From: Candidatus Curtissbacteria bacterium
Lineage (GTDB): Bacteria > Patescibacteriota > Microgenomatia > Curtissbacterales > GWA2-41-24
Direction of reading: 5' to 3'
DNA: 38,807 bases
NCBI GenBank assembly: GCA_030688205.1
Contig: JAUYIQ010000012.1
Location: 1 to 38,807, forward strand
Position 1 is the first letter of the stretch; each line of letters begins with the position of its first letter. Made by a program: the position numbers and the translations under genes. The notes beneath the pieces were generated by a model that was not told the DNA's origin, did no database searches, and saw only the letters and a program-made list of their open reading frames with translations. Shown here piece by piece: positions 369 through 38,807 of this stretch.

Positions 369-977
369 TTAGTATTCCGATTCCCGCTTATCGCTTCTCT
401 CTTCCAATACATACTTATAACTAAACCACCAGAAAAAAGCCAGCCAAAACATGCTCAAAAGTACTGCACCGTATTTATGGGTTAAATCGGTAGCAACTCC
501 ACCGAAATAATAAAGTATTGCCAGAATTAAAGCTATCCTGATTACGTTGAAGATAAAGGTTCCCAAAAAGCCGATAAGAAGGACTTCTATTTTGGAAAAC
601 CTCGTATATTTCTTAGAAAATCCTCCCCATAAGCTTATCCCTAAAATTACAAAAGACTGCCAGCCGATACAATTCCACGAAATATAAGTCTTCAAACTTT
701 GGCCGTTTTTAATAACCTCAACCGTCCCCTCAAGAATCGGCACTCCCGCAAGCTTCAAAAGTGTTCCTACAAGAACCTCCTCATACGGAACAAGGACATT
801 CTCAATCACCCTGAAAAAGAACGTTTGTTCTGCAATCTTTGCAAACAGGTTGTCCAAAGTCAGAAACAAGGGCAGGAATAAAAAGATGAAAAACAGCGGT
901 AATACAAGGTGGATTACCAGCCATCGTGATACTTCGTAAATTCTAGGATTTATTGTTGAACTGTAAATTTGCTTCAT
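369..977 (-). CDS. Exosortase/archaeosortase-family membrane protein (paralog 1)
   Basis: 202-aa ORF that is hydrophobic throughout, with about 6 predicted TM helices. Motifs are VPYEE, ISWNCIGWQS (Cys), FNVIRIALIL (Arg), THKYGAVLL (His) and FWWFSYKYVLEE. The Cys...Arg...His order matches the conserved core described for exosortases/archaeosortases. It is a clear paralog of 22929-23471 and 29182-29763. Confidence 0.7.
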   Translation of the reverse strand: MKQIYSSTINPRIYEVSRWLVIHLVLPLFFIFLFLPLFLTLDNLFAKIAEQTFFFRVIENVLVPYEEVLVGTLLKLAGVPILEGTVEVIKNGQSLKTYISWNCIGWQSFVILGISLWGGFSKKYTRFSKIEVLLIGFLGTFIFNVIRIALILAILYYFGGVATDLTHKYGAVLLSMFWLAFFWWFSYKYVLEERSDKRESEY

Positions 978-1043
978 AGTTAACCTTCGATATGACTACA
1001 AATAGGGTACCATATTAGGCTAAATTTTTAATATAAACCGCCA

Positions 1044-1080: not shown

Positions 1081-2118
1081 ATGTTTTCTCCTAAATATAC
1101 AATTACCGATACGCTTCTTGCCAACATCAAGCGAATTAATACTCTTGTTAACGGGCTAAACAACAGGAGATTTGCAAATGTTATTTTGTTGCAGCTGGAA
1201 AGGACCGCCAGAGAGGTTTCTAGCTATGCCTCAACGAGTATTGAAGGCAATCCTCTTCCCCTAACAGAAGTAAAAAAGATCCTTAAATCTAAACCGACCC
1301 ATATAAGAGAAAGTGAAAAAGAAGTTCTTAATTATAACCAAGCCCTGCAAGGACTAAACAAAAAGCTGGAAGAAGGTAAAGTAAAACTGTCACTGGCATT
1401 AATATTAAAGATCCAAAAACAAGTCACATTGGGACTTCTTCCTTCTTATGAATCCGGAAATTTAAGGCAAAAGCCAGTCGTAGTGAATGATCCGCGAACC
1501 GGGCAAATTAAATTCCTTCCGCCGGATGTAAAAGATGTTGAAACATTGATAAAGGATTTAATTAAGTATGTTATCAAAAACAGAGAAAAAATTGACCCTT
1601 TAATTTTAGCCGGTATATTCCATAAACAAATGGTTTTAATCCACCCGTTTACTGACGGCAATGGCAGAACTACCCGTTTGGCTACAAAAGTCTTAATGGC
1701 ACAGATGGGATTAAATACTTTTAGCTTATTCAGCTTCGAGAATTATTATAACCAAAATGTTACAAGGTATTTCGAAAAAGTGGGAGAATTTGGAAATTAT
1801 TATGATTTAGTTTCCTATGGAATTGATTTTACCCCTTGGTTAGAATACTTCACGGAAGGAATCATAGATGAACTATTAAGAGTGCAAAAACTACTTCCCG
1901 AAGAAACTACATCGCCACAGACAGGACTTCAACTCTTTCATTTTAGGATATTGGATTTTATCAGGGAGAAAGGTTTTATCACCAACCGGGATTATTCCAA
2001 ATTAGCAGACCGCGCGAAAGCCACAAGAGCAATTGATTTTCAAAAGTTGATAAAATTAGGCCTGATCGAAAGAAAAGGTAAGGGTAGGGCAACTTATTAT
2101 GTCTTAAAGGAAAAATAG
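1081..2118 (+). CDS. Fic-family protein (AMPylase-type) with N-terminal inhibitory motif and C-terminal winged-helix domain
   Basis: Canonical Fic motif HPFTDGNGRTTR (HxFx[DE]GNGRxxR). An upstream STSIEGN fits the (S/T)xxxE(G/N) intramolecular inhibitory helix. The C-terminus RAIDFQKLIKLGLIERKGKGRATYYVLK looks wHTH-like. Confidence 0.9.
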   Translation: MFSPKYTITDTLLANIKRINTLVNGLNNRRFANVILLQLERTAREVSSYASTSIEGNPLPLTEVKKILKSKPTHIRESEKEVLNYNQALQGLNKKLEEGKVKLSLALILKIQKQVTLGLLPSYESGNLRQKPVVVNDPRTGQIKFLPPDVKDVETLIKDLIKYVIKNREKIDPLILAGIFHKQMVLIHPFTDGNGRTTRLATKVLMAQMGLNTFSLFSFENYYNQNVTRYFEKVGEFGNYYDLVSYGIDFTPWLEYFTEGIIDELLRVQKLLPEETTSPQTGLQLFHFRILDFIREKGFITNRDYSKLADRAKATRAIDFQKLIKLGLIERKGKGRATYYVLKEK

Positions 2119-2139: not shown

Positions 2140-4740
2140 TCATCCCCCGTTTTTTCTCCGCCTCCTTCCCAAAACCTTTCTTAATCGGTTAAACCCAAGA
2201 ATTCTCAAAAACCACATTGAAAATTGAAAATTGCTTGCCCTCCAAAACTTTAGTGAAGGAGGGAAAATTGAAAGTGTTCCCTGCCGAATACTTCTAATAA
2301 TCTTCGGAATCCCAAACGCAAACGGAGCCAGAAGAATCGAATATTCGGGAACTGGATCTCCGCCCTCGGTGTAGGTAGCGTAGATGGAGTATTTATTGGT
2401 CGTATGGGTGAAGGTAGCTGGAGATGTTAAATAGGCATTAGCTTGGGAATGCCCCTGGTCTGCACTTCCAGTATCATATTTATAATAGGCATTAACAAAC
2501 TTTGCGTATGCGTGTGCGAGAGCTAAGACGTAATCAACTGCCTCAATAGTTGGTGAAGTAGCAAAAGCGAAATCAACCCAACTATATGAAGTTCCTACAG
2601 ACACTTCATTAGTTGCTCCGTTAGTTATCAATGTTGAATCACTATGAGTATAAATTCCACCTTTAGCATTTCCTGCAGTGAGCCTTTTAGTATAGGCAGT
2701 AATCTTTGTGGCTGTTCCTGCAGCGCCTGTAAAAAGGCTTCCTCTTGTGGCCGCTCCATATGCGTACAGATCAGCTATCTCCTCAGTGCCCCCCGCCGTC
2801 TCGTACCCAAAAGTCGGGTCGACTGTGACGGGGTATTGGGCTTGGGCAAGCCAATTTTGATCGACAGTAACTGTTAATTCTCCCTTAACGGTATCAACAT
2901 TTAAATTTCCCCAGGTCGAATTATTGTTTGCGTCGGTGATTTTCGGCCGGTAAATATGGAGGGCTTTCCCCGTCTTGTAGTTTTTTCCGCCAAGTTGGGA
3001 ATAATCACCGGATTTGCCATCTTTGTAATAAACGGCATACGAGCCGACAACATTTTCCGGCCGGAAGATTGTGATGTGATTTTCTTTATCGCGGCACTCA
3101 GTCAGAGTACATGTTAATTCCGGATCCTTATTCTCCTCATTCAAAGCCGGCTGGTAGAAAAAATCCAAGTTCTTGGAATTAATGTCATAAGCAAAGACAT
3201 TGCTTTCCGGTTTTTCTTTAAGAAGTAAGTCAAACTCAAATTTGCCCGAGCTTCCGTTTTTAGCACTACCCGGCTCAGTGATTTTTTTGAAATAAAGATC
3301 CTGCTTCAGATCTTTCCAACTGATAGCATTGTTTCCTGTTTGAACCACAGCATCGGCACCTACCGGGTAGCTAATCTTCATTGAGGCTTCACCATCCCAG
3401 TTAGAAACAAGTACTTCCGGCTTGAGTTTTTTCGAATCGTTTCCGCCTACTGTAACGTTAGGAATGTCAGGGAAGTTATATGCTGCCTGTACGAGCCAAC
3501 CTGCATTCTTGCTTTCATCAAAAACCAACTTTCCTTCCTTGATGAACTTAATGGGTTCTACCAAATAAAATTGGGGGTAAATATCTTGTGCTTTTAAGAA
3601 GTATGTAAGCTCATGTACTTCTCCCTTCTTCCAATCAACTGTCCAGGTGAGCAGCCTTTGATACCCAACCTCAGTAAAGCCAACAACCGATTCCCTGCCT
3701 TCTACAACGGTTGCCGAATAGCCGGTTGGACTAAAACTTGCAGGCAAGGTTTCTGTGATTTGACCCCTAAAGTCTTGGTTTGCAACTACAGTAAGTTTGA
3801 CATCATAAGGTGAAGGTTGATAAATTCTGGTCGGGTAAGAAGTACGTTCAATATCAAAAGGTACGGATTCTTTAACCTCAAAGTAGCTTGTCGTGCTTCT
3901 TTTTCCTTCTTTTGATTCTACGATCAGGTCAAGTTTGTATAATCCCGTACCTTGAACCTTGAAGACTGCAGTGTAATCCGCGCTGTTTGTAATATTTTGC
4001 GGTCCGCACTTCCCGCTCGGCTTGATCCCCCCGTTTTCTGTGCTTAACTCTTCTCTAACTTGTAACTTGTCGCTTGTAACTTGTAACTTCAACCTGGCAT
4101 CACAAACTGCCTTACCCTGATCGTTTAGTACCCCGAAGCCAAGTTTCGCTTCTTCACCTGGTAAATAGATGCTCTTGTTGGTATTGATTGCAAGTGTTCC
4201 CCATCTGAAATCCTGAGTGGAAACGTAGTTAGCTCCTGTTGCATCCGTCCATTTGGCAGAAAGTGTGTATTTGCCGGGTTTGACTCCGGAAATATTCGAA
4301 AGCGTTACTTTAAATCCGCTGTCTTCACTAGCAATTTCAGGCTTAATATCCAATACTTCATGACCGGCATAATCCAATATAGAAGCTTCAGCTTTGGGTT
4401 CTGCAGCTTCCACCCTGCCCAATGAAAATATCCGGTCAAGCGTACTTACCTTGTTTTCGCTTCTTAGATAAAACTCCGGTTGACTTCCATTTCCAAACGT
4501 GTCGGTAACTGTTTCGATCTTTCCCCAGCTGGCAAGAGAGCCCAGTCTCGGGACCATGTCAAACAAACTCTCGTTAAAACTCAGTGCATTCAAAAGAATC
4601 GTGAATATCAAAAGAAACACCAGAAAACTAAGACCTTTTCGTCCTTTTCTTCTTGGCTGTATCCTCGGCGGATATTCCACCCAGCCGAAAGCCACTTGGT
4701 TTTTTGGTCTCAATCTGTTTCTAAAGAGTAAAATCTTCAT
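2140..4740 (-). CDS. Secreted surface protein with Ig-like/beta-sandwich domains and a PVPE C-terminal sorting signal (cargo 1)
   Basis: The ORF track gives 2140-4899. The likely start is ATG at 4740 (MKILLFRNRL...), which is followed by a signal-anchor helix LSFLVFLLIFTILLNALSF. Upstream codons overlap the HTH gene. Sequence stretches resemble MG/CARDB/DUF11-type sandwiches (FRWGTLAINTNKSIYLPGEEAKL, TWTVDWKKGEVHELTYFLKA). The C-terminus is DPVPE-YSILLAPFAFGIPKII-RSIRQ plus 46 extra residues. Confidence 0.7.
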   Translation of the reverse strand: MKILLFRNRLRPKNQVAFGWVEYPPRIQPRRKGRKGLSFLVFLLIFTILLNALSFNESLFDMVPRLGSLASWGKIETVTDTFGNGSQPEFYLRSENKVSTLDRIFSLGRVEAAEPKAEASILDYAGHEVLDIKPEIASEDSGFKVTLSNISGVKPGKYTLSAKWTDATGANYVSTQDFRWGTLAINTNKSIYLPGEEAKLGFGVLNDQGKAVCDARLKLQVTSDKLQVREELSTENGGIKPSGKCGPQNITNSADYTAVFKVQGTGLYKLDLIVESKEGKRSTTSYFEVKESVPFDIERTSYPTRIYQPSPYDVKLTVVANQDFRGQITETLPASFSPTGYSATVVEGRESVVGFTEVGYQRLLTWTVDWKKGEVHELTYFLKAQDIYPQFYLVEPIKFIKEGKLVFDESKNAGWLVQAAYNFPDIPNVTVGGNDSKKLKPEVLVSNWDGEASMKISYPVGADAVVQTGNNAISWKDLKQDLYFKKITEPGSAKNGSSGKFEFDLLLKEKPESNVFAYDINSKNLDFFYQPALNEENKDPELTCTLTECRDKENHITIFRPENVVGSYAVYYKDGKSGDYSQLGGKNYKTGKALHIYRPKITDANNNSTWGNLNVDTVKGELTVTVDQNWLAQAQYPVTVDPTFGYETAGGTEEIADLYAYGAATRGSLFTGAAGTATKITAYTKRLTAGNAKGGIYTHSDSTLITNGATNEVSVGTSYSWVDFAFATSPTIEAVDYVLALAHAYAKFVNAYYKYDTGSADQGHSQANAYLTSPATFTHTTNKYSIYATYTEGGDPVPEYSILLAPFAFGIPKIIRSIRQGTLSIFPPSLKFWRASNFQFSMWFLRILGFNRLRKVLGRRRRKNGG
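2281..2355 (-). other. PVPE + TM helix + basic cluster sorting signal of cargo 1
   Basis: CCA GTT CCC GAA (PVPE) was verified at 2344-2355 on the minus strand, followed by YSILLAPFAFGIPKII and RSIRQ. Confidence 0.6.
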
Positions 4741-5191
4741 AGCTAACTCCTTTCTGCTCGGCCTCAAAAATGATCTTCGTGGTAAAAAGCGCCGCGCCGA
4801 ACAAAAACGCTTTTTCCTGTTGCCATAGCTGTCGTTTTGAGTGGGTGTTAAGTGCAAGACGACTGAGGATATTGCGGACTCCCTTTTCGGAAATCGCAAA
4901 ACATTCGTTAGTTATCAATTTGGCGAGCTTCTTTGTGGAAAAATGCGGATTTTGCAAAACTTTCTCGAGAACTGTCTGTTCCCTGAATGGGGTCGCTCTT
5001 CGCGGGTGGTTTAAAATTTGCGCTTTTTTGGGTTTTACTGAGGACTTCTTGCCTGTGTAACGCTTATTTAGGCGGTAAAAAATTGTTCTGGAGATTCCGT
5101 AGAGTTTGCACCCCAAAGTTACAGAGAGTTCACCTCTTCGAACTCTTTCTATTAATTCACAGCGTTTCTTCTGGGTTAATTTCGGCGCCAC
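4721..5191 (-). CDS. Small HTH DNA-binding protein resembling the N-terminal domain of IS481/IS630-type transposases, with no catalytic domain
   Basis: 156 aa. Motifs are LGCKLYGISRTIFYRLNKRY (HTH), NHPRR, and a second HTH-like segment STKKLAKLITNECFAISEKGVRNILSRL. Its stop overlaps the cargo-1 start by 20 nt. Confidence 0.55.
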   Translation of the reverse strand: MAPKLTQKKRCELIERVRRGELSVTLGCKLYGISRTIFYRLNKRYTGKKSSVKPKKAQILNHPRRATPFREQTVLEKVLQNPHFSTKKLAKLITNECFAISEKGVRNILSRLALNTHSKRQLWQQEKAFLFGAALFTTKIIFEAEQKGVSYEDFTL

Positions 5192-5378: not shown

Positions 5379-5384
5379 CTCCGC

Positions 5385-13615: not shown

Positions 13616-13655
13616 AGCAAATATTTAATATCTGCGTTATAATCTCCGAACTTTG

Positions 13656-27737: not shown

Positions 27738-28672
27738 GCCCTACCTCCACTTTGTGCCACTCGCAAAACCATAAAAATACTTATGTAGTACTTCATGCTG
27801 AAGATAAAGAAAAATAGTCCAAAGAAAAGAGCAATAGAAGCAAAAGCTAAGCCAACCACAGATGTACCAGCTGAAGCCGAAGAAACCATTCTGAAAAAGA
27901 AGAAGGTTACAAGAAAAGGAAGAGACAAAATGGACAAAGCAGACAAACCGCGGCGAGGGTCAGTTACTATTAGCTTCGGGACAGAAGCAAAAGGCGCAAA
28001 CAAATCCCGCCACCTGTATACAGGCATTTCGGGCTGATACAGCGGAGCGACTTGGACAAAAGGCTCAACAAAAAAGGCTCCAACATGCAGCAACCTGCGG
28101 GCAAGCGTATTGAGGTTCTCACGCGACAGTAGATTTTGAATCCCGTGATGCCCGACACTGCCCCTTAACCTCTCGTGGAGACTCTTAACAGACAGGTTGG
28201 GATTGGCAAAAACCTCATCAATCACCAATCTTTCTTGATCTTTTGAAAGGGCGTTATAATGCAAACTTCCCTTTAGACGCTTACTGGCAAGGCCACCTTT
28301 ACCTTCCGCTTTATATCTTTTAAGCCACTTGTAACAAGTTTTTCTGGAAATACCGGCTTCCCTGCAAAGTTCTGCTATGCTTCCGTGACCCGCAAGTACC
28401 TTATTAACAAGAAGTGACTTGTCTCGAATGTTTAGGGCTTTAATCGACCTTCGGTCGCATTTGAATCTTTTATCTCTAAGCTTACTAGCAAGCAAATGCG
28501 GTGCAGCATCCTTATATATAGCAAGCCATTTATAAAAAGTTTTTCGGGAGATTCCAGCCTCACGGCACAATCTGGCTATTTTTCCGCCGGACCGGGCTTT
28601 TTTTATTAATGTTAATTTAGCCTCGGAAGAAAAATATGCCACAATTAAAGTGTTACCTTTATCGGGTATCAT
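27734..28672 (-). CDS. Membrane-tethered protein with tandem IS481-like HTH domains (candidate regulator), no transposase core
   Basis: Motifs ARLCREAGISRKTFYKWLAIYKD and AELCREAGISRKTCYKWLKRYKAEGKGGLASKR, plus a third HTH-like segment LSVKSLHERLRGSVGHHGIQNLLSR. The C-terminal ~90 aa are hydrophobic (LSILSLPFLVTFFFF, VVGLAFASIALFFGLFFFIF). ATG at 28672; the track uses TTG at 28678. Confidence 0.55.
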   Translation of the reverse strand: MIPDKGNTLIVAYFSSEAKLTLIKKARSGGKIARLCREAGISRKTFYKWLAIYKDAAPHLLASKLRDKRFKCDRRSIKALNIRDKSLLVNKVLAGHGSIAELCREAGISRKTCYKWLKRYKAEGKGGLASKRLKGSLHYNALSKDQERLVIDEVFANPNLSVKSLHERLRGSVGHHGIQNLLSRENLNTLARRLLHVGAFFVEPFVQVAPLYQPEMPVYRWRDLFAPFASVPKLIVTDPRRGLSALSILSLPFLVTFFFFRMVSSASAGTSVVGLAFASIALFFGLFFFIFSMKYYISIFMVLRVAQSGGRA

Positions 28673-29181
28673 AGTCAAATTTTTCTGGGGCTATTAAAAC
28701 AATAGGCCTATATAGTAAAAATGAGGCTAAAAGAGCATTAATTTTTATGCAACTATAAGTAACAAAACATACTACTATAAGATTAATATAATTAATTATA
28801 GGATGATAATTATTAATGGCTTGTCCTAATGGGCTAAACGTAAGACCTGTTTATCTCGCAGCCTATTAGCTGAATTAGCAAAATTGGTCATATCCCAAGG
28901 AGTAATGTACTCAAAAAACGCTTTAAAACCTCTTTTACAGCCTCTTGGTGGCTAATGAGAAAAAAATTGAAGATTCCTCTAGATCTATCTAGATTTTTTC
29001 ACAACTTATTGACTAAATATTTCACAGATATAATCTCATAACAAGACTCTGTAATAATCACTGATTAGCACAAATAAGATGAACATGTGCTTACTTAATC
29101 AATATATATCTTTTTATAATTTACTATAATTTGTAGAATCAGACACCAATTTCCGATACGGTCCTCTCTAACACTGTAGGC

Positions 29182-29763
29182 CTACAGCGATTTTTCCTCT
29201 AACACAAAACCATAAGCAAACCACCAGAAGAAAAACAGCCAGCCAATCACAGCTAAAAGTGAACCATAGTCGTGAACAATCGTCGCCGGCAGTTGACCAA
29301 AGTTGTAAGCCACAAAAATAACCAGCACAATTCTTAAAATATTGACCCAAAAAGTCCCCAGAGCGCCGATTAAAAAGGCCTTGAATTTGGATAAATTCGT
29401 ATATTTATTTCCCTGCAAACCAATGAATGCCGTGATGGCAAAGAAAAGAATTGATTGCCAGCCAATGCAGTTCCAGATAATCTCGGCAATAAAAGGTTGA
29501 TTATTCCCCAAAACAACATATTCACGGGTCACCGCCACCTCAACTCCCAAAAGCGCCAAAATCACTGCCGTCAGCCTCACTTCAAAAGGTACAACATACT
29601 CGCGAATCAAGTAGTAGCCTTTAAGGTTAATTACAATCCTCGTCAAAATGTCATTGAAAGTCGCCATTAGGGGAAAAAACATCAAAATTAGAACCAGAAT
29701 TAGAAAAAGGGTCACAAAGGTATTGCGGGAAACAGAAATTGTTCTAAATTTAGGCGCAATCAT
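29182..29763 (-). CDS. Exosortase/archaeosortase-family membrane protein (paralog 3)
   Basis: Motifs VPFEV, IIWNCIGWQS, VNILRIVLVI, VHDYGSLLA and FWWFAYGFVLEEK. Confidence 0.7.
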   Translation of the reverse strand: MIAPKFRTISVSRNTFVTLFLILVLILMFFPLMATFNDILTRIVINLKGYYLIREYVVPFEVRLTAVILALLGVEVAVTREYVVLGNNQPFIAEIIWNCIGWQSILFFAITAFIGLQGNKYTNLSKFKAFLIGALGTFWVNILRIVLVIFVAYNFGQLPATIVHDYGSLLAVIGWLFFFWWFAYGFVLEEKSL

Positions 29764-29765
29764 GA

Positions 29766-30431
29766 TTAAAAATTATCAGAGCTTACCATATCTTTTACCG
29801 GCCCCATAAAAGTATAACCGGTTTCATTTTTTCTGACGTCAACAGAAACGAGAGTAGTGGCTTTCAAAACCCCATCAATATATATCTTTTTACTACCTTT
29901 TCCATCATTTAAATCCCAGGAAACGCTAATACCGTGAGCAGACTCTAAGAAATTTGCGTCCAGTTCTACATCTGCTTCCCTGTGGTCATCTATACCGCCT
30001 GAGTCAAAAATATTAAAATGCACATCTTTTCCCTCTTTAATTAAAATTTGCAAAGCATTATTGTGATTCTCCAGATTAAAATTGCCTAAAAATAAAATAA
30101 GATCGGTGTTTTTTGCCCACGGTTGTGCTGCTAATTTAAAGCTGACAGTCCCCTTTTGAATGTCTATTTGCCCCTCGTTGCGATATAAATAGTTCGGCAA
30201 AGCCACAATATTTTTGAATTGACGAAGATCCAATCCTTTGTGAGGATCATTGCCGCGTAGCCCTTCTGAAGAAGCACCCTGCGGTTGTTGCACCGGCTCA
30301 ACCACCGGCTCAACCGGCTCAACGGAAAATGGTGCCGGCTTGCGATTTCTTAAATAAAAAAACCACACCGCAGCTGCAATTATCAGCAACAGCAAGGCAA
30401 TGACAACAACAAGCTTCCTTAAATTTTTCAT
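29766..30431 (-). CDS. Signal-anchored protein with Pro-rich linker and LamG/ConA-like jelly-roll domain (tentative)
   Basis: TM helix LVVVIALLLLIIAAAVWFFY and linker EPVEPVVEPVQQPQ. GTVSFKL..., LILFLGN and ISVSWDLNDGKGSKKIYIDGVLKA resemble LamG-type motifs. Its ATG overlaps the cargo-3 stop as ATGA (30428-30431). Confidence 0.45.
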   Translation of the reverse strand: MKNLRKLVVVIALLLLIIAAAVWFFYLRNRKPAPFSVEPVEPVVEPVQQPQGASSEGLRGNDPHKGLDLRQFKNIVALPNYLYRNEGQIDIQKGTVSFKLAAQPWAKNTDLILFLGNFNLENHNNALQILIKEGKDVHFNIFDSGGIDDHREADVELDANFLESAHGISVSWDLNDGKGSKKIYIDGVLKATTLVSVDVRKNETGYTFMGPVKDMVSSDNF

Positions 30432-33400
30432 AGGCGTTGTACCAGGTTCTTTTTCTTTTTCAACCTCGACATCAACCCATATGCCAGTGGTGTTGCCAAA
30501 AGTAGGTAAAGTGTCCTCTCCGGCACTGGTGCAAACTCAAAATTTGTTCCCTGACGTAAGACTACCCCAATCTGGCTGGTTCCGTAACCGGTCATAGTGG
30601 ACGAGATGTGGCCCAAATCGCCTGCCGTAAAAGCGTAAGAAGTCGAAGCACCCCAGCCCAAGAGACAAGCCGCACTGTTGCAATCGGCGAAGGTAATATC
30701 CCCATCGGTGCCGTCGAAATAGGCCACTTTGCAATCGCTGGCGGAGAGGCAATAGACACCAGGTACCGAGCTATCAATACCACCGCCAACGGCAGTATCA
30801 ATGTCTGTGATAGTTGGCGCTGAACAGGTGGCATCGTTACAATCGGCGAAGGAGACATCTTCTTCGTTCCCGTCAAAATAGACCACTTTGCAATCAATCG
30901 CTGATGGGCAATAGATCGAAGCTTGAGCCCAGAAATTACCGACAACATCGGTGTCGATGTCGTTAATTGTCGGCGCTGAACAGGTGGCATCGTTACAATC
31001 GGCGAAGGTGATATCCTGGTCGGTTGTATCAAAATAAGCGACTTTGCAATCGGTAGCTTGCGGGCAGTAGATCGAAGCATTAGCTGCGCTGCCAACATCG
31101 GTGTCGATGTCGTTAATTGTCGGCGCTGAACAAGTGGCATCGTTACAATCGGCGAAGGAGACATCTTCTTCGTTCCCGTCAAAATAGACCACTTTGCAAT
31201 CAATCGCTGATGGGCAATAGATCGAAGTCGTAGCAAAAGTACCAACATCGGTATCGACATCGGTCAAGGTTGGCGCTGAACAAGTGGCATCGTTGCAATC
31301 GGCGAAGGTGACATCTTGGTCAACATCGTCATGATAGGCTACTTTACAGTCATCGGCTGCAGGGCAGTAGATTGATGGGCGGTAATTAGAATTAACGGTG
31401 GTATCAATATCAGTAATGGTTGGCGCTGAACAAGTGGCATCGTTGCAATCGGCGAAAGTCAAATCCGTATCAGCGAGATCAAAATAGATTATTTTACAGT
31501 CATCGCCTGCGGGGCAGTAGATTGATGGTAGAGCATCAGCAAGCCCAACAGCAGTGTCGATGTCTGTGATAGTTGGCGCGCTACATGCGGCATCGTTGCA
31601 ATCGGCGAAGGTGACATCTTGGTCAGTTCTGTCAAAATAGGCCACTTTGCAATCGCTGGCGGAGAGGCAGTAGATTGAAGCATAAGCTGCACTACCCACA
31701 TCAGTGTCAATATCTGATGGAGTTGAAGTAATCATTGTCTCATCAGTTGTCTTAAAGTAGGCTTGGTCAGAACTATCCTTAATTGTATGGGCATATAAAT
31801 CGCCGTTTTCTAAGTCGTAGGTAATTGAAACCGACTCAAGCTCAGTCTCGCCGCTTGGCCAAGGAGCAGTTAGCGAACTCCAAGTGCTTCCGTTGAATTT
31901 ATAGAAGTTAGTAGCAGTCGTTCCGGAAACTGTCAACACCCATAAATTAGTATTGTCAGTGGTGACGGAATAAACATTATCGGTTACCGAAGCAATCGTC
32001 GCATTACTGGTTGTCCAACTGCTGCCGTCAAAAACTGAAGCCGAAAGATCGCCGTCCTGATAAACCATATGCAGATTGTTGCCAATGGTAACCAGAACAG
32101 GCCGGTCGCCGGCTGTCAGGCCGCTCGCGCTCGTAAAAGTAAGGCTATCCGCAAGCTCGACCCAGGGGTTGTTGTCCGTGGTCGACGTGTCGTTCTCCGG
32201 CAGGTCAGTGCCGGAGGCGTCGCCAATGCGAAGGCTAGAGTCGTGGGCAGCGGCAAACGGGTCGCCGCCCGTGCCCACCTCGATGACCAGGCGGTCGCCC
32301 GCGACGGTCGTGTAGTTGCCCGCCGCGCTCGTCGCCGTGAACTGACGGTTCGTCAGGGCGGCCGTTGACAGAGTTACGTTGTCCCGTGTAACAGCCAGGA
32401 CGGTCTTCCGGACGATGGAACCATCGGTGTTAACGATCCTGACGCCCAGGGCAGTACGCATGCCGTCCGCCACGAACGCCTTAAAGCCGCGAATCTGAAA
32501 CTTCAGCGCCTGCCCGCCGGTGATGGTCTGGCCGGGGGTGAGGGCGGCGCCCACGTACTGGCGGAAGAGGATGTCCTTGTCGGCGTTATCAGAGTCGTCA
32601 AACGCCACCGTGCTCATCGCCGAGGCGATCTTGGTCGTCACGGCGGCAAGGCGGGCAGCGATAGACACATTTTCCCAAGCTGCGTCGTAGGCGGGACTGA
32701 TGGCAGCAGCACCAGTCGAAGGTAAATAAAAACGGCTAGCACTGCCACTTTCGCCAGTAATATCAGTAAACGTACAGCCGGAAAAGGTCAGCTTAAAAAC
32801 AGCGACCTCAGTATCGGTTGAGGTATCAGAATAAGCCACATAAACAGTTCCGTTATCGGCAACGGCAACTGAAACCGTAAAACTGGTCGTGTCTATTGAC
32901 CCCTGATCGGCTGAAGTACATTTTGTTCCTAAAGTATCATTGGCGGTATTGATGGTATTAACCTCAATCGCATCGGAAGAGTCGTCAATCCAGGCAACGT
33001 AAATGGTATTACCCTCTAACCAAACGGAGGGATTGTAATTGTCGGTGTCTGTCGTATCAACTGTTTGAGATGATAGCCAAGTTGTTCCCCCATCGGTTGA
33101 CTTTTGATAGTAAATTTGACAACCGTTGGTTGAGGAACAGGTATCTCCGCTAACGCCATTGGTATAAAAAGCATAAAAAGCTCCGCCGACAGGTTTTAGC
33201 GGCACTCCGATTGTTCCCCAGTTGGCAGTGGCAGCCAAACCCCACGACATTGTTACCGTACCAGCTCCCTCCTCTGTACTACCAGCACCAGTAGCCTCAA
33301 CACCCTGCTGTACGTTATAACGCTGTGTTTGACCTGCTCCCACTGAAGAAACCGCTACAGACTCCACACCAACCGCATCTATAACCATTTCACCTTTCGC

Positions 33401-36400
33401 GCTTGTAACGTCAACTGTTACAGCATTGCTGGTTGACGTATTAGTGGCAACTGTTCCAAAGGGTGTCAGTTGATTAACTCCAGTAAAGCTCATAGCGCCT
33501 GCAGTTACTCCCTTGGAAGCAGATAGTGAAACAACTACACTATTTGTTCCGGTTGGCGGATTAACCAGTCTCCAAAGTTCAACTCGTCTGCTATTACCGA
33601 AGCTTACCCCCTGAACAAGTGATAATGAGGTGCTACTATAGGTAACCCCTGTTATGGTTGCACCCCCCGAAAGTTCAGCGGCTACACCGACGGTCAGTAT
33701 TCTATTGGCTCCGTTAGTAGTGACCGTATGGTTAAAACTTAAGCTGTTTGTAATTGCATTAGAACTGGAGGCATTATCAAAAGCAATCCCGGAATAAACT
33801 AGCTTCCTTTGCAAACCGCCGAATTGGGCTTCAACCTCTTCGGTTGAGCCACCACCGGCAACAGTTGATTTTGATCCGCCGGAGCAAGTTGCCGTCTCAC
33901 AATCAATAAATCTTAAATCACCATTAGTTACTTGATAATATGAAATCTTGCAATCGGTAACCGAAAGACAAAACATTGACGAATATTGACCGGTGTTATT
34001 GGCCGAATCAAGAGTCTGGAAGTTGTTTCCTGATGTACAATCGGTATTGCCGCAAACTAAAAATTTTAAGTCGCCAACCGTTCCTGAAGTACTGGCATCC
34101 TGGTTATCGTAATAATAGCTAATTCTGGGGATATCGGCAGCGTCAAGCCTAAGCGATGCAAAAAGCCTAATGTCAGCCCCGCTGCTAACCCGTTCAATCC
34201 TGGTCAAGCCGCTATTGGTCGAACAGGAAACATTGGTGCATCTGACAAACTTTAAAAAGTCACCGGAACTAAAAAAGTCATAATAAGCAATTCTTGAAAA
34301 GCCGTCGCTACCAATTGCTAAACTAATTCCATCCAAGCCAGCTGATCCTGTCCCATCAATGGTTTGGATGGTATCGGTTGTTGAACAAGCAGCGTTGGTA
34401 CAGTGAACAAATTTTAAAGCCTGGGGACTACCATTACTAAAATAAGCAATCTGGGCATTACCGGAAGAGTCTAATTTTATACCAATATTAAAGCTGTCTG
34501 GAAAGGCACTCACAGTGATTGTCGTATCAGGCGCATTATTGTTTCTGGCAGAACAAGTGGCATTGGTGCATTGGATGAATCTTAAGTCGTCAGTGGTCGT
34601 GTCATAATAGGAAATCCTCGCAAAACCATCAGAGCCCAAATCTAAGGCACTGCCATTACCGACATCACCATTGACCGTGCAGCCGACACAGCCGTCAATT
34701 GTAGTCGTAGTTCCGGTTGAGCAGGCCGAATTATCACAATCCCGAAAAATCAAATCGCCTGCGGTGGTATCGTAATATGAAATCTTGCAGTCAGTTGAGG
34801 AAACACAGGCCAAAGAAGGGCTGTGACCGGTATTATTAGCAGTATCAATCGAAGTAGCCGTACCGGTCGTACATTTAGCATTATCACAGTCATAAAATTC
34901 CAAATCGCCTCCGGACTGGTCGTAATAAGCAATCTTGCAATCGTCAGTCGCTACGCAATAAATAGAAGTATAGCGGCCAACATCATTGGTGGTATCTACA
35001 GCTTGAATATGAGTATGATTGCTAAATTCAAAAGCCTTGCCGCGTCTTACCACCACTCCGGATTGGGCCGTACCGGCTGCAGTTGCCGGAGAGGAAATAT
35101 GGCCTAAGTCATTGCCCACGAAGTTAAAATTGGCGCCGCTGCCTGTCCAGTCAATGGTTGTTGCATCAGAAGAATCAGCGTAAACCTGTTCCGCGCTGTC
35201 TTTGATGACATAAGCGATCAAATCGGAATTGGTTGAATCATAAGTTAAGGAAGCACTGGTTAGATTGGTTTCGCCGGAGAATGGCTGATCCAAAGTATTT
35301 GAACAGGCTGCATCGGTGCAATCAATAAAGGTCACGTCCTTATCCCAATCGTCGAAGAAAAAGACTTTGCAATCCTGGGCTTGAGTCGGCGTGCCATCAC
35401 TTGGACAAAAAATTGAAGGCCGCATATTAGCATGCGTTGCATTCTTAAGATCGTTGATGGTTGGAGCGGAACAGGCAGCGTCATTACAATCCACGAAATT
35501 AATATCCCGATCTGTGGTATCGGCATAAGAAACTTTACAGTCATCGGCCGCCGGGCAATGGATATCGACAAAGCCTTCATATTGGGCGGTTCCAACATCA
35601 GTGTCAATGTCGAACGGGCCGCCGCCGTCAAACGAACTGCAGGCTGCATTGGCGCAATCGGCAAAAGTAACATCACCATCTGTTGAGTCAAAGTAAACGA
35701 CTTTGCAATCGGCAGCAGTCGGGCAGTCAAGAGCCGGCTTGCCATAACTGCCAACGTCAGTATCAATGTCGGAAATCGCATCTCTGGTTGCACAATTAGC
35801 CGTAGCGCAATCGGCAAAAGTAATGTCTCCGGTTCCACCAACATCAGTCCCGTTATCAAAATAGACTATTTTGCAATCAAATGAGGCGCCAGCCAAACAG
35901 TCAACGGCTGAAACTGAAACAAAACCGCTTCCAACATCAGCGTCAATGTCTTGCTGGCCGCCGTTAGTCGAACAATCAACCGCATCACAATCGACGAAAG
36001 TAACATCATCATCAGTGTCGTCAAAGTAAACTACCTTGCAATCTCCCGCTCCCGCTCCGCAACTGATTGAAACCGAGGCTGAAGTACCAACGTCGGTATC
36101 AATGTCAAAAGCAGTACTGTCAAGGCTCGAACAGGCTACGTTGGCACAATCGGCAAAAGTGATGTCACCATCGGTTGAGTCAAAGTAAGCAATTTTGCAA
36201 TCAGCCGCAGTCGGGCAATCCAAATCAACCCGGGCGGTTGATCCGACGTCTGTATCAACATCATTAATCGTTGGTGCATCGCAATCTGCTCCGTTGCAAT
36301 CAACAAAAGTAATGTCACCGTCCGTTTTGTCAAAATATGCCAGCTTACAATCGTTTTGGGCCGGGCAATAGATTGAAACCGCAGCATCAGAAGTTGTATT

Positions 36401-38807
36401 GGCATCCCCGCTGGCAACGTCGGTATCAATGTCAATACTGCTCTTGCCCCAGGTACTCCCGTTGAATTTATAAAAGTTAGTAGCTGTCGTTCCGGAAACT
36501 GTCAAAGCCCATAAATTTGTGCCGTCTGTCGTAACCGAGTAGATATTGTCAGTAACTGAGGCAATCGTCGTATTGCTGGTTGTCCAACTGGTGCCGTCAA
36601 AAACTGAAGCCGAAAGATTGCCGTCCTGATAAACCATATGCAGATTGTTGCCAATGGTAACCAGAACAGGCCTGGCGCCCGTTGACGGCGCAAAAGCAAT
36701 GTTGTCAGTGAACCCCACCCAGGGGTTGTTGTCCGTGGTCGTAGTGTCGTTCTCGGGCAGGTCGCTCCCCGAGGCATCGCCGATGCGAAGGCTGGTTGTG
36801 TGGCTGGTAATTATCGGGTCGCCACCGGTGCCAACCTCGATAACAAGGCGGTCGCCCGCGACAGTCGTATAGTCGGTCGCCGCGCTAGTCGCCGTGAACT
36901 GACGGTTGGTCAGCGAGGTGGCTACCACGGTGTTGTCCCTCGTGACCGTCAGGACGGTCTTCTGGACGGTGGAGCCATCGGCGGCGATAACCCTGATTCC
37001 GATGGTCGTACACATACCGTCAGCAGAGATCGGCTGTAAAGCGCGAATCTGGAACTTCAGCGCCTGCGCCCCGGTGATGGTCTGGCCGGCGGCAAGCGGA
37101 GCGCTCACATACTGGCGGAAGAGAATGTCCCTGCTGGTGGAGTCAGCGTCAGTAAAGGCCACCGTGCTCATCGCCGAGGCGATCTTGGTCGTCACCGCGG
37201 CAAGGCGGGCGGCGATGGTCGTGTCCTCCCAGGCCGAGTCGTAGCCGGGGCTTACGGCAGCAGCACCGGTCGAAGGTAAATAAAAGCGGTTAGCAGCGCT
37301 CTCGGTAGTAAGACCGGAATACGACAACCGCTTGACTGAAACGCCAACTATCGTCCAGTCACACGAGCAAGAAGCAGTCCAGCTCATAGTAACAGTGGTA
37401 GCTCCCGGTTCGGTACTGCCTGCCTGATCCATATCGCCTTGCTCCTGATTCCAACGTTCGGTCTGACCGCCGCCAACTGTGAATGATTGTGGTTGGGCAA
37501 AAACTCCCAACACGCCATCGGCAACAATTTCACCAGTACCGCTGGAAACATCAACGGAAGCTGAGGTGCTGACACCAGAAGCCTTAGCTGCAGTTCCCAA
37601 AGGAGTCGTTTGATTGACACCAGCATAACTCATTGAACCTGCAAGTATGGCTGTATTAGCAGAAAAAGACGCTACCACATCATTTGCCCCGGTCGCGGGT
37701 GCAATCAAACGCCAAAGCTCAATTCTTCTGCCACCTACAGTTTGGCCATCAACGAAGGTAAGGCTAACACCCCCATATGTTACATCGGTGATATTAGCCG
37801 GGAAGTCATCAAAACCCACAAATACCAATAGCAAACGGTTTGAACCTGAGGTGGTATGACTATACGTTAAACTTGAGCAAGCGGTACAGGTAGAATTGGC
37901 TACAGCATCAAAAGCCAAAGTTCCTGATTCACCGGTAATATCGGTAAACGTACAGCCGGAAAATGTCAGTTTTAAAACTGCCGCTTCAGTATCCGTTGAG
38001 GTATCGGAATAGGCAAGATAGACCGTGCCGTTGTCGGCAACGGAAATGGAAACTGTAAAGCTTGCGGTATCGATTGTTCCCTGGTCGGCTGAAGTACATT
38101 TGGTTCCCAGAGCATCAGAACTTGCAGTATTTATTGTGTTTACTTCAACAGCGTCACCTGAATCATCAATCCAGGCGGCATAAATTGTGGTACCCTCAAG
38201 CCAGACCGAAGGGTTGTAGTTATCCGCATCAGCAGTATCAACATCAACGTTACTACCCCAGCTTGTTCCATTTGAGGATTTCTTGTAAAGAACATCCGTC
38301 CCGTCATTGTAAAAGGCATACCAATTACTTGAGGCATAAACTAACTTTCGCTGCAAACCTCCAAACTGGACCTCGGTTTCGGTAATGGTTGTACTTGTTC
38401 CCTGGAAAATGATAGACGGGTCAATGGAAACGGGATAAGCTCTTGCCGGGTCTGCAAGCCAAGATTGGACAGACTCGCCCAGGGTCTTGGTTAATTTATG
38501 CCCGACAACCTCCTTTTCCAATTTAAAATTAACATCATTGCTGACTTCCCCCTTACTATCCTTTAAAAATGGCTGGGAAAGTGCAAAAAATTCCTTACCA
38601 TCATCGGTATAAAAGCCAAACAACGTTGGATCGGGAGAAACAACCTTGACATCAACCGTTTTGACGGATTGTTCTATCTTATCGCCAAAATTTTTAGCCG
38701 CATCTAAGTTCTTAATAATAAATTCTTCGACTAAAAGATCGTCGGTAACGGTATATTTAAGATCAACGCCAGTAATTACCTCGTGATATATGACTTCTTT
38801 ATCTTGA
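30428..38807 (-). CDS. Giant secreted multi-propeller protein with a PVPE C-terminal sorting signal (cargo 3); 5' end lies beyond the right window edge
   Basis: The track ORF starts at a TTG at 38623. My hand translation shows the same frame stays open to base 38807 (..QDKEVIYHEVITGVDLKYTVTDDLLVEEFIIKNLDAAKNFGDKIEQSVKTVDVKVVSPDPTLFGFY..). It contains BNR/sialidase-like segments (YKKSSNGTSWG, YQKSTDGGTTW), two internal super-modules, and three 7-repeat Cys arrays. The C-terminus is APVPE-RTLYLLLATPLAYGLM-SRLKKKK. Confidence 0.8.
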   Translation of the reverse strand, partial: QDKEVIYHEVITGVDLKYTVTDDLLVEEFIIKNLDAAKNFGDKIEQSVKTVDVKVVSPDPTLFGFYTDDGKEFFALSQPFLKDSKGEVSNDVNFKLEKEVVGHKLTKTLGESVQSWLADPARAYPVSIDPSIIFQGTSTTITETEVQFGGLQRKLVYASSNWYAFYNDGTDVLYKKSSNGTSWGSNVDVDTADADNYNPSVWLEGTTIYAAWIDDSGDAVEVNTINTASSDALGTKCTSADQGTIDTASFTVSISVADNGTVYLAYSDTSTDTEAAVLKLTFSGCTFTDITGESGTLAFDAVANSTCTACSSLTYSHTTSGSNRLLLVFVGFDDFPANITDVTYGGVSLTFVDGQTVGGRRIELWRLIAPATGANDVVASFSANTAILAGSMSYAGVNQTTPLGTAAKASGVSTSASVDVSSGTGEIVADGVLGVFAQPQSFTVGGGQTERWNQEQGDMDQAGSTEPGATTVTMSWTASCSCDWTIVGVSVKRLSYSGLTTESAANRFYLPSTGAAAVSPGYDSAWEDTTIAARLAAVTTKIASAMSTVAFTDADSTSRDILFRQYVSAPLAAGQTITGAQALKFQIRALQPISADGMCTTIGIRVIAADGSTVQKTVLTVTRDNTVVATSLTNRQFTATSAATDYTTVAGDRLVIEVGTGGDPIITSHTTSLRIGDASGSDLPENDTTTTDNNPWVGFTDNIAFAPSTGARPVLVTIGNNLHMVYQDGNLSASVFDGTSWTTSNTTIASVTDNIYSVTTDGTNLWALTVSGTTATNFYKFNGSTWGKSSIDIDTDVASGDANTTSDAAVSIYCPAQNDCKLAYFDKTDGDITFVDCNGADCDAPTINDVDTDVGSTARVDLDCPTAADCKIAYFDSTDGDITFADCANVACSSLDSTAFDIDTDVGTSASVSISCGAGAGDCKVVYFDDTDDDVTFVDCDAVDCSTNGGQQDIDADVGSGFVSVSAVDCLAGASFDCKIVYFDNGTDVGGTGDITFADCATANCATRDAISDIDTDVGSYGKPALDCPTAADCKVVYFDSTDGDVTFADCANAACSSFDGGGPFDIDTDVGTAQYEGFVDIHCPAADDCKVSYADTTDRDINFVDCNDAACSAPTINDLKNATHANMRPSIFCPSDGTPTQAQDCKVFFFDDWDKDVTFIDCTDAACSNTLDQPFSGETNLTSASLTYDSTNSDLIAYVIKDSAEQVYADSSDATTIDWTGSGANFNFVGNDLGHISSPATAAGTAQSGVVVRRGKAFEFSNHTHIQAVDTTNDVGRYTSIYCVATDDCKIAYYDQSGGDLEFYDCDNAKCTTGTATSIDTANNTGHSPSLACVSSTDCKISYYDTTAGDLIFRDCDNSACSTGTTTTIDGCVGCTVNGDVGNGSALDLGSDGFARISYYDTTTDDLRFIQCTNATCSARNNNAPDTTITVSAFPDSFNIGIKLDSSGNAQIAYFSNGSPQALKFVHCTNAACSTTDTIQTIDGTGSAGLDGISLAIGSDGFSRIAYYDFFSSGDFLKFVRCTNVSCSTNSGLTRIERVSSGADIRLFASLRLDAADIPRISYYYDNQDASTSGTVGDLKFLVCGNTDCTSGNNFQTLDSANNTGQYSSMFCLSVTDCKISYYQVTNGDLRFIDCETATCSGGSKSTVAGGGSTEEVEAQFGGLQRKLVYSGIAFDNASSSNAITNSLSFNHTVTTNGANRILTVGVAAELSGGATITGVTYSSTSLSLVQGVSFGNSRRVELWRLVNPPTGTNSVVVSLSASKGVTAGAMSFTGVNQLTPFGTVATNTSTSNAVTVDVTSAKGEMVIDAVGVESVAVSSVGAGQTQRYNVQQGVEATGAGSTEEGAGTVTMSWGLAATANWGTIGVPLKPVGGAFYAFYTNGVSGDTCSSTNGCQIYYQKSTDGGTTWLSSQTVDTTDTDNYNPSVWLEGNTIYVAWIDDSSDAIEVNTINTANDTLGTKCTSADQGSIDTTSFTVSVAVADNGTVYVAYSDTSTDTEVAVFKLTFSGCTFTDITGESGSASRFYLPSTGAAAISPAYDAAWENVSIAARLAAVTTKIASAMSTVAFDDSDNADKDILFRQYVGAALTPGQTITGGQALKFQIRGFKAFVADGMRTALGVRIVNTDGSIVRKTVLAVTRDNVTLSTAALTNRQFTATSAAGNYTTVAGDRLVIEVGTGGDPFAAAHDSSLRIGDASGTDLPENDTSTTDNNPWVELADSLTFTSASGLTAGDRPVLVTIGNNLHMVYQDGDLSASVFDGSSWTTSNATIASVTDNVYSVTTDNTNLWVLTVSGTTATNFYKFNGSTWSSLTAPWPSGETELESVSITYDLENGDLYAHTIKDSSDQAYFKTTDETMITSTPSDIDTDVGSAAYASIYCLSASDCKVAYFDRTDQDVTFADCNDAACSAPTITDIDTAVGLADALPSIYCPAGDDCKIIYFDLADTDLTFADCNDATCSAPTITDIDTTVNSNYRPSIYCPAADDCKVAYHDDVDQDVTFADCNDATCSAPTLTDVDTDVGTFATTSIYCPSAIDCKVVYFDGNEEDVSFADCNDATCSAPTINDIDTDVGSAANASIYCPQATDCKVAYFDTTDQDITFADCNDATCSAPTINDIDTDVVGNFWAQASIYCPSAIDCKVVYFDGNEEDVSFADCNDATCSAPTITDIDTAVGGGIDSSVPGVYCLSASDCKVAYFDGTDGDITFADCNSAACLLGWGASTSYAFTAGDLGHISSTMTGYGTSQIGVVLRQGTNFEFAPVPERTLYLLLATPLAYGLMSRLKKKKNLVQRL
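30431..30529 (-). other. PVPE + TM helix + basic cluster sorting signal of cargo 3
   Basis: CCA GTG CCG GAG (PVPE) was verified at 30518-30529 on the minus strand, followed by RTLYLLLATPLAYGLMSRLKKKKNLVQRL. Confidence 0.65.
30828..30921. repeat. 94-nt perfect direct repeat, copy 1 (partner 31134-31227)
   Basis: Base-by-base comparison shows the identical string gtggcatcgttacaatcggcgaaggagacatcttcttcgttcccgtcaaaatagaccactttgcaatcaatcgctgatgggcaatagatcgaag. The offset is 306 nt, which is in frame. It encodes SIYCPSAIDCKVVYFDGNEEDVSFADCNDAT in blades 6 and 4. Confidence 0.9.
31134..31227. repeat. 94-nt perfect direct repeat, copy 2 (partner 30828-30921)
   Basis: See copy 1. Confidence 0.9.
32098..32734 (-). 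repeat. GC-rich domain Z, copy 2 (RFYLPSTGAAAISPAYDAAWE ... DTSTTDNNPWV)
   Basis: Hand counts give 42/60 and 44/60 G+C for lines 32221-32280 and 32281-32340, against 27/60 at 33601-33660 and 19/60 at 12001-12060. In 32153-32209, 17 of 19 codons end in G/C. It is a paralog of 36668-37288. Confidence 0.8.
33884..34999 (-). repeat. Array B: seven in-frame ~50-65-aa repeats ([SL]..C....DCKI[AS]YYD....DL.F..C....C; the first Cys pair is replaced by L.SDGF.R in the middle repeats)
   Basis: I counted seven repeats by hand: IAYYD, ISYYD, ISYYD, IAYF, IAYYD, ISYYYD, ISYYQ. Confidence 0.8.
35303..36436 (-). repeat. Array A: seven in-frame ~45-55-aa 4-Cys repeats (same consensus as array C, more diverged)
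   Basis: I counted seven repeats by hand, from IDIDTDVASGD...SIYCPAQNDCKLAYFD to ...DCKVFFFDDWDKDVTFIDCTDAAC. Confidence 0.8.
36668..37288 (-). repeat. GC-rich domain Z, copy 1 (RFYLPSTGAAAVSPGYDSAWE ... DTTTTDNNPWV)
   Basis: Hand counts give 36/60 (36781-36840) and 38/60 (37141-37200) G+C. This copy is less extreme than copy 2. Protein similarity to copy 2 is high along the whole domain. Confidence 0.8.

Follow-up and report, generated by a model that had tools for sequence, protein, structure and literature searches.

Three small exosortase/archaeosortase family proteins and their (V/I)PE-tailed neighbors in a Curtissbacteria contig: probable dedicated protein-sorting modules

The stretch of DNA analyzed here, hereafter the window, comprises 38,807 nucleotides of a Candidatus Curtissbacteria bacterium (assembly GCA_030688205.1, contig JAUYIQ010000012.1) and encodes three small membrane proteins (mini-sortases 1 to 3), each lying downstream of a large protein (cargos 1 to 3) whose C-terminal region carries a Pro-Glu motif, a hydrophobic helix and a cluster of basic residues. 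The question raised by this arrangement is whether each small protein is an enzyme devoted to the tail of its neighbor. It arises in the Patescibacteria (Candidate Phyla Radiation, CPR), which live attached to other cells and whose way of building a surface is poorly known. We find that the small proteins belong to the exosortase/archaeosortase superfamily and conserve its Cys/Arg/His triad, that enzyme and cargo genes stay adjacent in related genomes, that enzyme clade and tail type are inherited together and that natural fusions unite both in one chain. Each locus is therefore probably a dedicated protein-sorting module, in which the small enzyme processes the tail of its adjacent cargo.

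Three small enzymes of the exosortase/archaeosortase family

All three mini-sortases are encoded on the minus strand, at 369..977 (mini-sortase 1, 202 amino acids), 22929..23471 (mini-sortase 2, 180 amino acids from an ATG at 23471, within an open reading frame [ORF] reaching 23528) and 29182..29763 (mini-sortase 3, 193 amino acids). The ATG at 23471 is probably the true start of mini-sortase 2, overlapping the stop codon of cargo 2 as ATGA. The three proteins are 34-40% identical in pairwise comparisons and have in common the motifs VP[YF]E, WNC[IL]GWQS, NxxRI, HxY and FWWFxYxxVLEE, the central three of which read WNCIGWQS, NVIRI and HKY in mini-sortase 1. A first-pass annotation, made from the letters of the window, had listed these motifs accurately and had proposed that the proteins are exosortase/archaeosortase-like. 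Profile searches bear out this assignment: mini-sortases 1, 2 and 3 score 32, 32.7 and 36.6 bits, respectively, against TIGR04178, the NCBIfam signature of the exosortase/archaeosortase superfamily, whose curated cut-off is 23. In eight relatives belonging to other clades the score is 30-41 bits, so that every clade sampled lies above the cut-off. The Pfam model Exosortase_EpsH gives a borderline result for one window sortase (25.6 versus 25.7).

When the sortases and the tails were searched with all NCBIfam and Pfam models, the superfamily signature was the only one to exceed its cut-off. On the window sortases and their relatives, none of the named sortase subfamily models scores more than about one third of its cut-off: the best scores are 32.5 against 100 for ArtC, 26.8 against 102.75 for XrtG, 19.9 against 95 for ArtE, 28.6 against 150 for ArtF, 31.2 against 170 for XrtX, 26.2 against 225 for CrtC and 24 against 250 for thaumarchaeosortase, and the XrtS and XrtY models likewise stay below their curated cut-offs. 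For the window sortases alone, the best values are up to 30 versus 100 (ArtC), 27 versus 103 (XrtG) and 20 versus 95 (ArtE).

The residues expected of a catalytic core, which the first-pass annotation had read in the order Cys, Arg, His, are retained across the family. Among 56 aligned homologs, 55 have Cys99, and all have Arg144, His164 and Asn141 as well as the residues of the W-x-x-x-G-W-Q motif. An AlphaFold2 model of mini-sortase 3 (pLDDT 85, pTM 0.71) comprises six helices and a small three-stranded extracytoplasmic sheet directly before the WNC motif; a hydropathy scan, at the threshold used, delimits four segments in each mini-sortase. The order of the modeled helices would turn Cys99, Arg144 and His164 all towards the outer face of the membrane.

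Mini-sortase 3 has 164 homologs, which NCBI and JGI name only "exosortase/archaeosortase family protein", and a hidden Markov model search of 1.84 billion cluster representatives returned 664 matches at E<=1e-3 and 79 at E<=1e-30. These numbers describe a genuine clade of limited extent. Its members also carry a VP[YF]E motif of their own at the start of helix 3 (approximately residues 58-61 of mini-sortase 3), with an invariant Pro and a Glu conserved in 91%; the resemblance of this element to the (V/I)PE motif of the putative substrates could be a coincidence or the mark of a pseudo-substrate element.

The (V/I)PE tail and its pairing with the enzyme

The three window tails lie on the minus strand at 2281-2355 (DPVPE-YSILLAPFAFGIPKII-RSIRQ, cargo 1), 23471-23590 (MPVPE-ALLFAAPALIFVPKLV-EWIKQRRLKNKEK, cargo 2) and 30431-30529 (APVPE-RTLYLLLATPLAYGLM-SRLKKKK, cargo 3), exactly where they had been placed on first reading. 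They were compared with those of 80 related loci, drawn from contigs representing one genome per species, with the taxon labels of metagenome-assembled genomes (MAGs) in this set taken as given. Initially, an exact search for P[VILAT]PE recovered 7 tails only; the first Pro is therefore not conserved, and we adopted a tripartite rule consisting of [VI]PE, a hydrophobic helix and an Arg/Lys cluster. Of the PVPE motif first described, the [VI]PE core thus stands, and the leading Pro is a local feature that is not conserved in a set of 160 distinct tails. A looser rule based on PE, which produced many false positives in high-GC contigs, served solely to count the content of family 2 glycosyltransferases (GT2). 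Applied to all window ORFs of at least 100 amino acids, the strict rule returns the three tails and one false positive, an ATP-binding cassette (ABC) permease at 5999-6874, so that the window holds three enzymes, three tails and no orphan tail.

In the 160 tails, where P and E of the motif are fixed by the selection rule, position -1 is V in 51% and I in 27%. Position +2 is N, S, K, I or R and Pro is never common there, which upholds the original remark that the second Pro of PEP-CTERM is missing; the Pro that had been noticed inside the helix recurs at +14 in 69% of the tails and at +11 in 40%. From the Glu to the start of the basic cluster, the median distance is 18 residues. Against the NCBIfam CTERM models, the three window tails yield no match even at E<=10, and tails from seven relatives yield one sub-threshold PEP-CTERM match (IIVPEATLLLG..., 14.5 bits versus 16), in scans where very weak matches may be lost to HMMER filters. 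Combined with the subfamily scores reported above, this leaves enzymes and tails alike outside the named subfamilies.

Some tails continue past the basic cluster in a long cytoplasmic extension with a conserved end, "...(L)DELPV" or "LPV" (P0128, P0131, P0148, P0152, P0163, P0226, P0232 and P0233), and cargo 2 terminates in "...KIVMVLPV" (23468-23482). An extension of this type may be a second, cytoplasmic recognition element.

The association between tail and enzyme is maintained well beyond the window. Scanning the 2670 ORFs of the 80 loci and the window identified 58 tail-positive ORFs; for about 53 of them, the next gene downstream on that strand is a WNCxGWQ gene. A sortase-adjacent tail is found in 53 of the 80 loci, many of the remaining ones being cut by contig ends. 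In most of the 80 loci, the ORF just before the sortase homolog encodes 400-2300 amino acids with [VI]PE, a hydrophobic stretch of approximately 18 residues and Arg/Lys, and ATGA start/stop overlaps join cargo and enzyme genes. Furthermore, sampling from the cargo side, with four contigs picked through their GT2 protein (L081-L084), revealed sortase genes beside tail-bearing fusions in all four. One of these contigs, L083, encodes two consecutive GT2 fusions followed by two tandem sortases, so that gene order does not always tell which enzyme serves which tail. Tandem pairs of mini-sortases were observed at L017 1799-3131, L026 3339-4566, L054 3134-4987 and L083 19392-20710.

Enzyme and tail are also found in a single polypeptide, in either order: P0311 and P0328 are arranged as GT2, ectodomain, IEVPEN tail and sortase, and P0288 and P0302 as sortase, helix, ectodomain and tail. 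Moreover, the type of tail follows the clade of the enzyme. Each of the eight sortases that share at least 50% identity with mini-sortase 3 is paired with an "EFxx[VI]PE" tail resembling the cargo 3 tail, and relatives of mini-sortase 1 are paired with "VPE...PKII(R/K)SI(R/Q)QG" tails. The module ranges over Patescibacteria, Dormibacterota and Chloroflexota, including the cultured Dictyobacter formicarum, and is present in MAGs labelled Bathyarchaeia or Nitrososphaeria. In D. formicarum (assembly GCA_016587435.1, contig BNJJ01000008.1) the gene pair lies at L081 8001-11702 and 11762-12388, and the P0138 protein of this organism carries MQTPE before its tail helix.

Cargo architecture, predicted processing and known sorting systems

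A full cargo usually combines cytoplasmic helix-turn-helix (HTH) domains, a processive-type GT2, a variable ectodomain and the tail in one polypeptide. BLASTP comparisons show that the tail-bearing proteins of relatives usually contain a GT2 40-60% identical to the window ORF at 25434-27737, and that in many Microgenomates cargos the HTH region encoded in the window at 27734-28678 and at 4721-5191 precedes this GT2. The Pfam order HTH, GT2, tail is found in single ORFs of 1474-2313 amino acids (L027, L050); a GT2 without a detected HTH occurs in L010 (1330 amino acids) and in the Dormibacterota/Nitrosotalea loci L056 and L064 (820-841 amino acids). Among the 37 sortase-adjacent tail ORFs uncut by a contig end, 30 also encode a GT2. 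With the window GT2 as query, at least 1332 homologs were retrieved, mostly of 1000-1350 amino acids, combining HTH and GT2 Pfam domains and bearing generic names only; 71 of the top 120 have the strict [VI]PE tail, and additional ones have TPE.

The GT2 motifs D182xD, TED297, QRMRW335 and WFRTPK469 are kept in 119-120 of 120 homologs. The window GT2 matches Pfam GT2 families above their cut-offs (E about 1e-15) and has partial NCBIfam matches to PgaC/IcaA, CelA, NodC and MdoH; no match reaches equivalog level (47 bits versus 422 for PgaC), and a phmmer search of the PDB with this protein returned nothing. From its motifs and partial synthase matches, the window GT2 is classified as a processive-type membrane synthase resembling those of cellulose, poly-N-acetylglucosamine (PNAG) and chitin oligosaccharides. 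Hydropathy predicts two helices after the HTH region, further helices after the catalytic domain, a helix at 551-569 leading into the ectodomain, and the tail helix. This layout, in which the parity of the helices between QxxRW and WFRTPK is ambiguous by hydropathy, is consistent with HTH and GT2 domains in the cytoplasm, the ectodomain outside the membrane and the basic cluster inside.

The three cargos had been described as unrelated. This holds for the three window ectodomains, which have no similarity to one another detectable by BLASTP; the proteins nevertheless share the common architecture of HTH, GT2, variable ectodomain and tail. A relationship among the ectodomains themselves was considered and rejected, since BLASTP similarity is limited to the tail. 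Additional HTH-GT2 fusions lie a few kilobases from the sampled ones at L082 11059-15888 and L081 17373-19702, one of them 3719 amino acids long with a Laminin_G_3 domain, and several modules seem commonly to lie together, as they do in the window.

Two explanations center on the GT2 and leave the tail uncut. In the first, the tail would be the last structural transmembrane (TM) helix of a BcsA-like GT2 channel and the small gene would be incidental. The order of the fusions (QxxRW, helices, WFRTPK loop, helix, ectodomain, tail helix) lends itself to this explanation and presumably overlays the TM5-TM8 order of the bacterial cellulose synthase BcsA. We consider it very improbable, because the same tail is borne by proteins lacking a GT2 (cargo 1, its L085 ortholog, P0288, P0302 and L048), because it tracks the sortase clade and not the GT2, and because sortase genes adjoin approximately 53 of the 58 tails. 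In the second, the small protein would be a non-catalytic or non-cutting partner of the synthase, such as a scaffold, an assembly factor or a polysaccharide-export accessory, docked on a tail helix that serves as a permanent anchor. It was in exopolysaccharide loci that exosortase genes first came to notice, as the Pfam name Exosortase_EpsH recalls, the cargo nearly always includes a GT2 (the 30 of 37 untruncated cases) and the single chains of sortase and cargo would fit a stable complex equally well. The near-invariant Cys, Arg, His and Asn, however, form the catalytic signature of the family and would be needless in a scaffold, and tail-sortase pairs also exist without a GT2 (cargo 1, L085, P0288, P0302 and L048), which ties the enzyme to the tail rather than to the synthase. 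We therefore regard a non-cutting partner as unlikely.

The explanation that we favor is that the tail is processed by the enzyme encoded beside it. The mini-sortase would be a six-helix Cys/Arg/His intramembrane peptidase or transpeptidase with a sole substrate, the protein encoded just upstream. When complete, this substrate is predicted to run from the cytoplasmic HTH through two membrane helices, a cytoplasmic processive GT2 and a further helix to a variable ectodomain outside the cell, whose far end would be held by (V/I)PE, a Pro-kinked helix of approximately 18 residues and a cytoplasmic Lys/Arg cluster. The enzyme Cys, at the outer end of helix 4, would attack (V/I)PE at the outer face of the membrane, the attack would remove the tail helix and basic cluster, and the new C-terminus may be passed, by analogy with ArtA, to the amine of a lipid head group, to a wall polymer or to water. 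In ArtA, the active-site Cys has been established and resolution of a thioester by an ethanolamine lipid has been proposed (PMC7157517).

Several observations weigh against tail processing by the adjacent enzyme. Neither a profile search nor Foldseek found a PDB match for the sortase model that might lend its geometry to the active site. Enzyme and tail similarities are strongly correlated overall (Mantel r=0.80, with 0 of 2000 permutations reaching r), yet r falls to 0.17 among pairs below 50% identity, and given the weak correlation of distant pairs this association indicates inheritance as a unit and not proven co-adaptation. In the window itself, mini-sortase 1 and cargo 1 are separated by 1.1 kb containing an antisense gene, and the locus-2 substrate is split by a frame change, which could make this copy a pseudogene or reflect faulty assembly.

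A more elaborate version of the favored scheme would be a self-contained surface-display machine, in which the GT2 extrudes a glycan, the sortase joins the cut ectodomain to the nascent glycan or lipid, the HTH domains signal the state of the complex to transcription, and each enzyme-cargo pair is insulated from the others. Insulated paralogous pairs would allow one small genome to display several ectodomains independently. We deem this version distinctly unlikely as a whole and offer it as speculation.

The first-pass annotation had presented the one-to-one arrangement of enzyme and cargo as unusual. The three enzymes and three tails are as described; however, dedicated one-to-one sorting systems, identified by genes that follow one another, already form an accepted class (Haft 2023 preprint), which makes the pattern less unusual than it first seemed. 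The closest analogue is the XrtG system of Firmicutes, in which a short exosortase has one Firmicu-CTERM target and two associated glycosyltransferases, and which thus resembles the present module in placing one dedicated tail-bearing target beside the enzyme and a GT2 in the same module (PMC12854382). Both enzymes are very short (187 positions in the XrtG model), and XrtG is among the better-scoring named models for mini-sortase 1. Patescibacteria, like the hosts of XrtG, are generally regarded as single-membrane organisms. Nonetheless, the window sortases reach only 18-27 bits against the XrtG cut-off of 102.75, the model of the XrtG-associated GT2 (TIGR03111) does not match the window GT2 and gives the relative P0311 22.6 bits versus 363.95, and Firmicu-CTERM matches none of the window tails or the seven relatives' tails. 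These three failed model tests place the present module outside the XrtG system, from which it also differs in usually having GT2, target and HTH in one chain, in its (V/I)PE motif, in its several copies per genome and in its host lineages.

The ArtA/PGF-CTERM system of Haloferax volcanii shares with the mini-sortases the superfamily, the Cys/Arg/His set and the motif-helix-basic logic of the signal. ArtA differs in serving many substrates, in being considerably larger and in recognizing PGF instead of (V/I)PE, and its model does not match the window sortases at E<=1. According to an entry in the reference list of PMC7157517, ArtA processes a tripartite signal located away from the extreme C-terminus; to the extent that this entry conveys, the extended tail of cargo 1 has a parallel there and is unproblematic. 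XrtA/PEP-CTERM (EpsH) resembles the module in the Pro-Glu core of its motif and in its link to polysaccharide synthesis, and differs in the second Pro, in having one enzyme for many targets and in belonging to outer-membrane bacteria; its model leaves the window tails unmatched. The best-scoring named models are those of ArtC (19-32 bits), ArtE, ArtF, XrtX (up to 31) and XrtY. The ArtE, ArtF, XrtX and XrtY models are similarly small (153-168 positions), but scores for all five lie well under the cut-offs of 95-170 and their cognate signals differ from (V/I)PE.

Our literature search, outside of which lay Haft 2012 (J Bacteriol 194:36), found no paper linking exosortase, archaeosortase or PEP-CTERM with Patescibacteria, CPR, Microgenomates or Dormibacterota. 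The sorting concept itself is known, but this enzyme clade, its signal and the fusion of synthase, HTH and target appear to be undescribed and not covered by curated models. They extend the family into Patescibacteria, Dormibacterota and Ktedonobacteria-type Chloroflexota, and would represent a widespread, repeated and as yet unnamed way of handling the largest surface proteins of Patescibacteria. The module brings together parts that are usually separate, namely a sorting enzyme, a processive sugar-polymer synthase and a DNA-binding domain. Since the pair is present in the cultured D. formicarum, the predicted cleavage and attachment are directly testable, and the practical yield would be two annotation models, covering the enzyme clade and the (V/I)PE-CTERM signal, respectively.

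The three loci of the window

At each locus the sortase gene lies downstream of its cargo and on the same strand, as first described; the two are not always immediate neighbors, a Fic-domain gene standing between them at locus 1 and a gene for a 221-amino-acid protein at locus 3. Cargo 3 (30428..38807, minus strand, open at the window end) comprises at least 2792 amino acids, with a giant Cys-repeat ectodomain ending in the APVPE tail. Its first residues in the window align to positions ~1000-1400 of fusions that have their GT2 at 340-915 (L066, L025, L027), which indicates that the HTH and GT2 part of cargo 3 probably lies beyond 38807. The intervening gene (29766..30431, minus strand) encodes a single-pass membrane protein with an N-terminal TM helix, overlaps the cargo-3 stop codon as ATGA and has homologs at the same position in L027 and L012; its product matches no Pfam or NCBIfam model, and the gene is an accessory gene of the mini-sortase 3-type operon. 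The ectodomain of cargo 3 contains 17 Cys-containing repeats of approximately 50-56 amino acids with the core "DCK[IV]x[YF][FY]D", arranged in several tandem runs, and 89 Cys residues in total. By eye, its N-terminal block of approximately 600 residues recurs near residue 1800 (a self-BLAST gave the identity match only), and the G+C content of the cargo 3 region is 46-52%, compared to 37-42% in the rest of the window.

At locus 2, the parts of a full cargo are distributed over three ORFs on the minus strand. The first (27734..28678) encodes a protein of 314 amino acids with two transposase-type HTH domains (Pfam HTH_28, HTH_29 and HTH_Tnp_1) and TM helices at 244-262 and 274-292, a region that is fused to GT2 in L027, L066, L050 and P0125. 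It is followed by the GT2 (25434..27737), which ends with a TM helix and the first ectodomain module, and by cargo 2 (23468..25513), which consists of a repeat-module ectodomain and the MPVPE tail and has no signal peptide of its own. The junction between the HTH and GT2 genes, an ATGA overlap with GGAGG just upstream, looks like that of a live coupled gene pair; at the GT2/cargo-2 junction there is no start signal. P0125, a single protein of 1329 amino acids, is colinear with the HTH-TM protein (frame -2), the GT2 (frame -1) and cargo 2 (frame -2), and the change of frame falls between 25509 and 25462, within a repeat module, near CACTTTTGG and beside a T4 run. Cargo 2 is thus probably a frame-shifted continuation of the GT2 ORF, and we read the break as a one-base frame change due to assembly error, mutation or recoding. 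A single-base indel at 25440-25520 would restore a protein colinear with P0125.

Locus 1 comprises, in addition to mini-sortase 1, the Fic-domain gene (1081..2118, plus strand; Pfam Fic E=4e-16), cargo 1 (2140..4740, minus strand) and an upstream gene for an HTH protein of 156 amino acids (4721..5191, minus strand) that overlaps cargo 1 by 20 nucleotides. Cargo 1 has a signal-anchor helix, an MG2-like ectodomain and the DPVPE tail, and lacks a GT2. Its mechanically called ORF reaches 4899, and its start is likely the Met at 4740; the ortholog in L085 likewise begins with MKILLFRN and shares the extended tail. The claim that all cargos end in the tail requires amendment for cargo 1, in which a basic cytoplasmic extension of 47 amino acids follows the tail and is kept in orthologs.

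Two related loci clarify how cargo 1 relates to mini-sortase 1. In L085, the mini-sortase 1 ortholog is 88% identical and the locus layout is identical, including an antisense Fic gene (6838-7875) and a separate HTH gene upstream of cargo 1. In L086, a sortase 47% identical to mini-sortase 1 overlaps by 4 nucleotides the end of a 1356-amino-acid GT2 fusion, which has the same kind of ectodomain as cargo 1 and a tail of the form VPE...PKIIKSIRQGTLVED. These layouts identify cargo 1 as the cognate partner of mini-sortase 1 and as a derivative of the common architecture lacking the GT2. The cargo 1 ectodomain is also homologous to those of the GT2 fusions P0151 and P0154, and the HTH protein at 4721-5191 has BLASTP matches to the N-terminal regions of fusions in L046, L040, L032 and L066. 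The Fic gene is probably part of the context, outside the sorting system.

The irregularities of loci 1 and 2 could also mean that the three loci stem from duplicated or mobile DNA and are now decaying and without function. In support, the HTH domains belong to the IS481, IS3 and IS630 transposase types, locus 2 occupies three ORFs where P0125 is a single protein, the cargo-2 ORF is without start signal or signal peptide, and the Fic gene is inserted in locus 1. Even so, this explanation appears highly improbable: no transposase catalytic domain is present, the HTH-GT2 combination is a large conserved family with its 1332 or more homologs, the GGAGG and ATGA at the HTH/GT2 junction are those expected of functioning, coupled genes, a second genome, with a mini-sortase 1 ortholog 88% identical to that of the window, preserves the split layout of locus 1, and the catalytic residues are complete in all three sortases.

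Beyond locus 1, the window encodes two ABC ATPases, a BPD_transp_1 permease and two NMT1/THI5-like binding proteins (5367-8104, 8108-9127, 13653-14414 and 16008-17000), and the same transporter genes lie beside the copy of locus 1 in L085.

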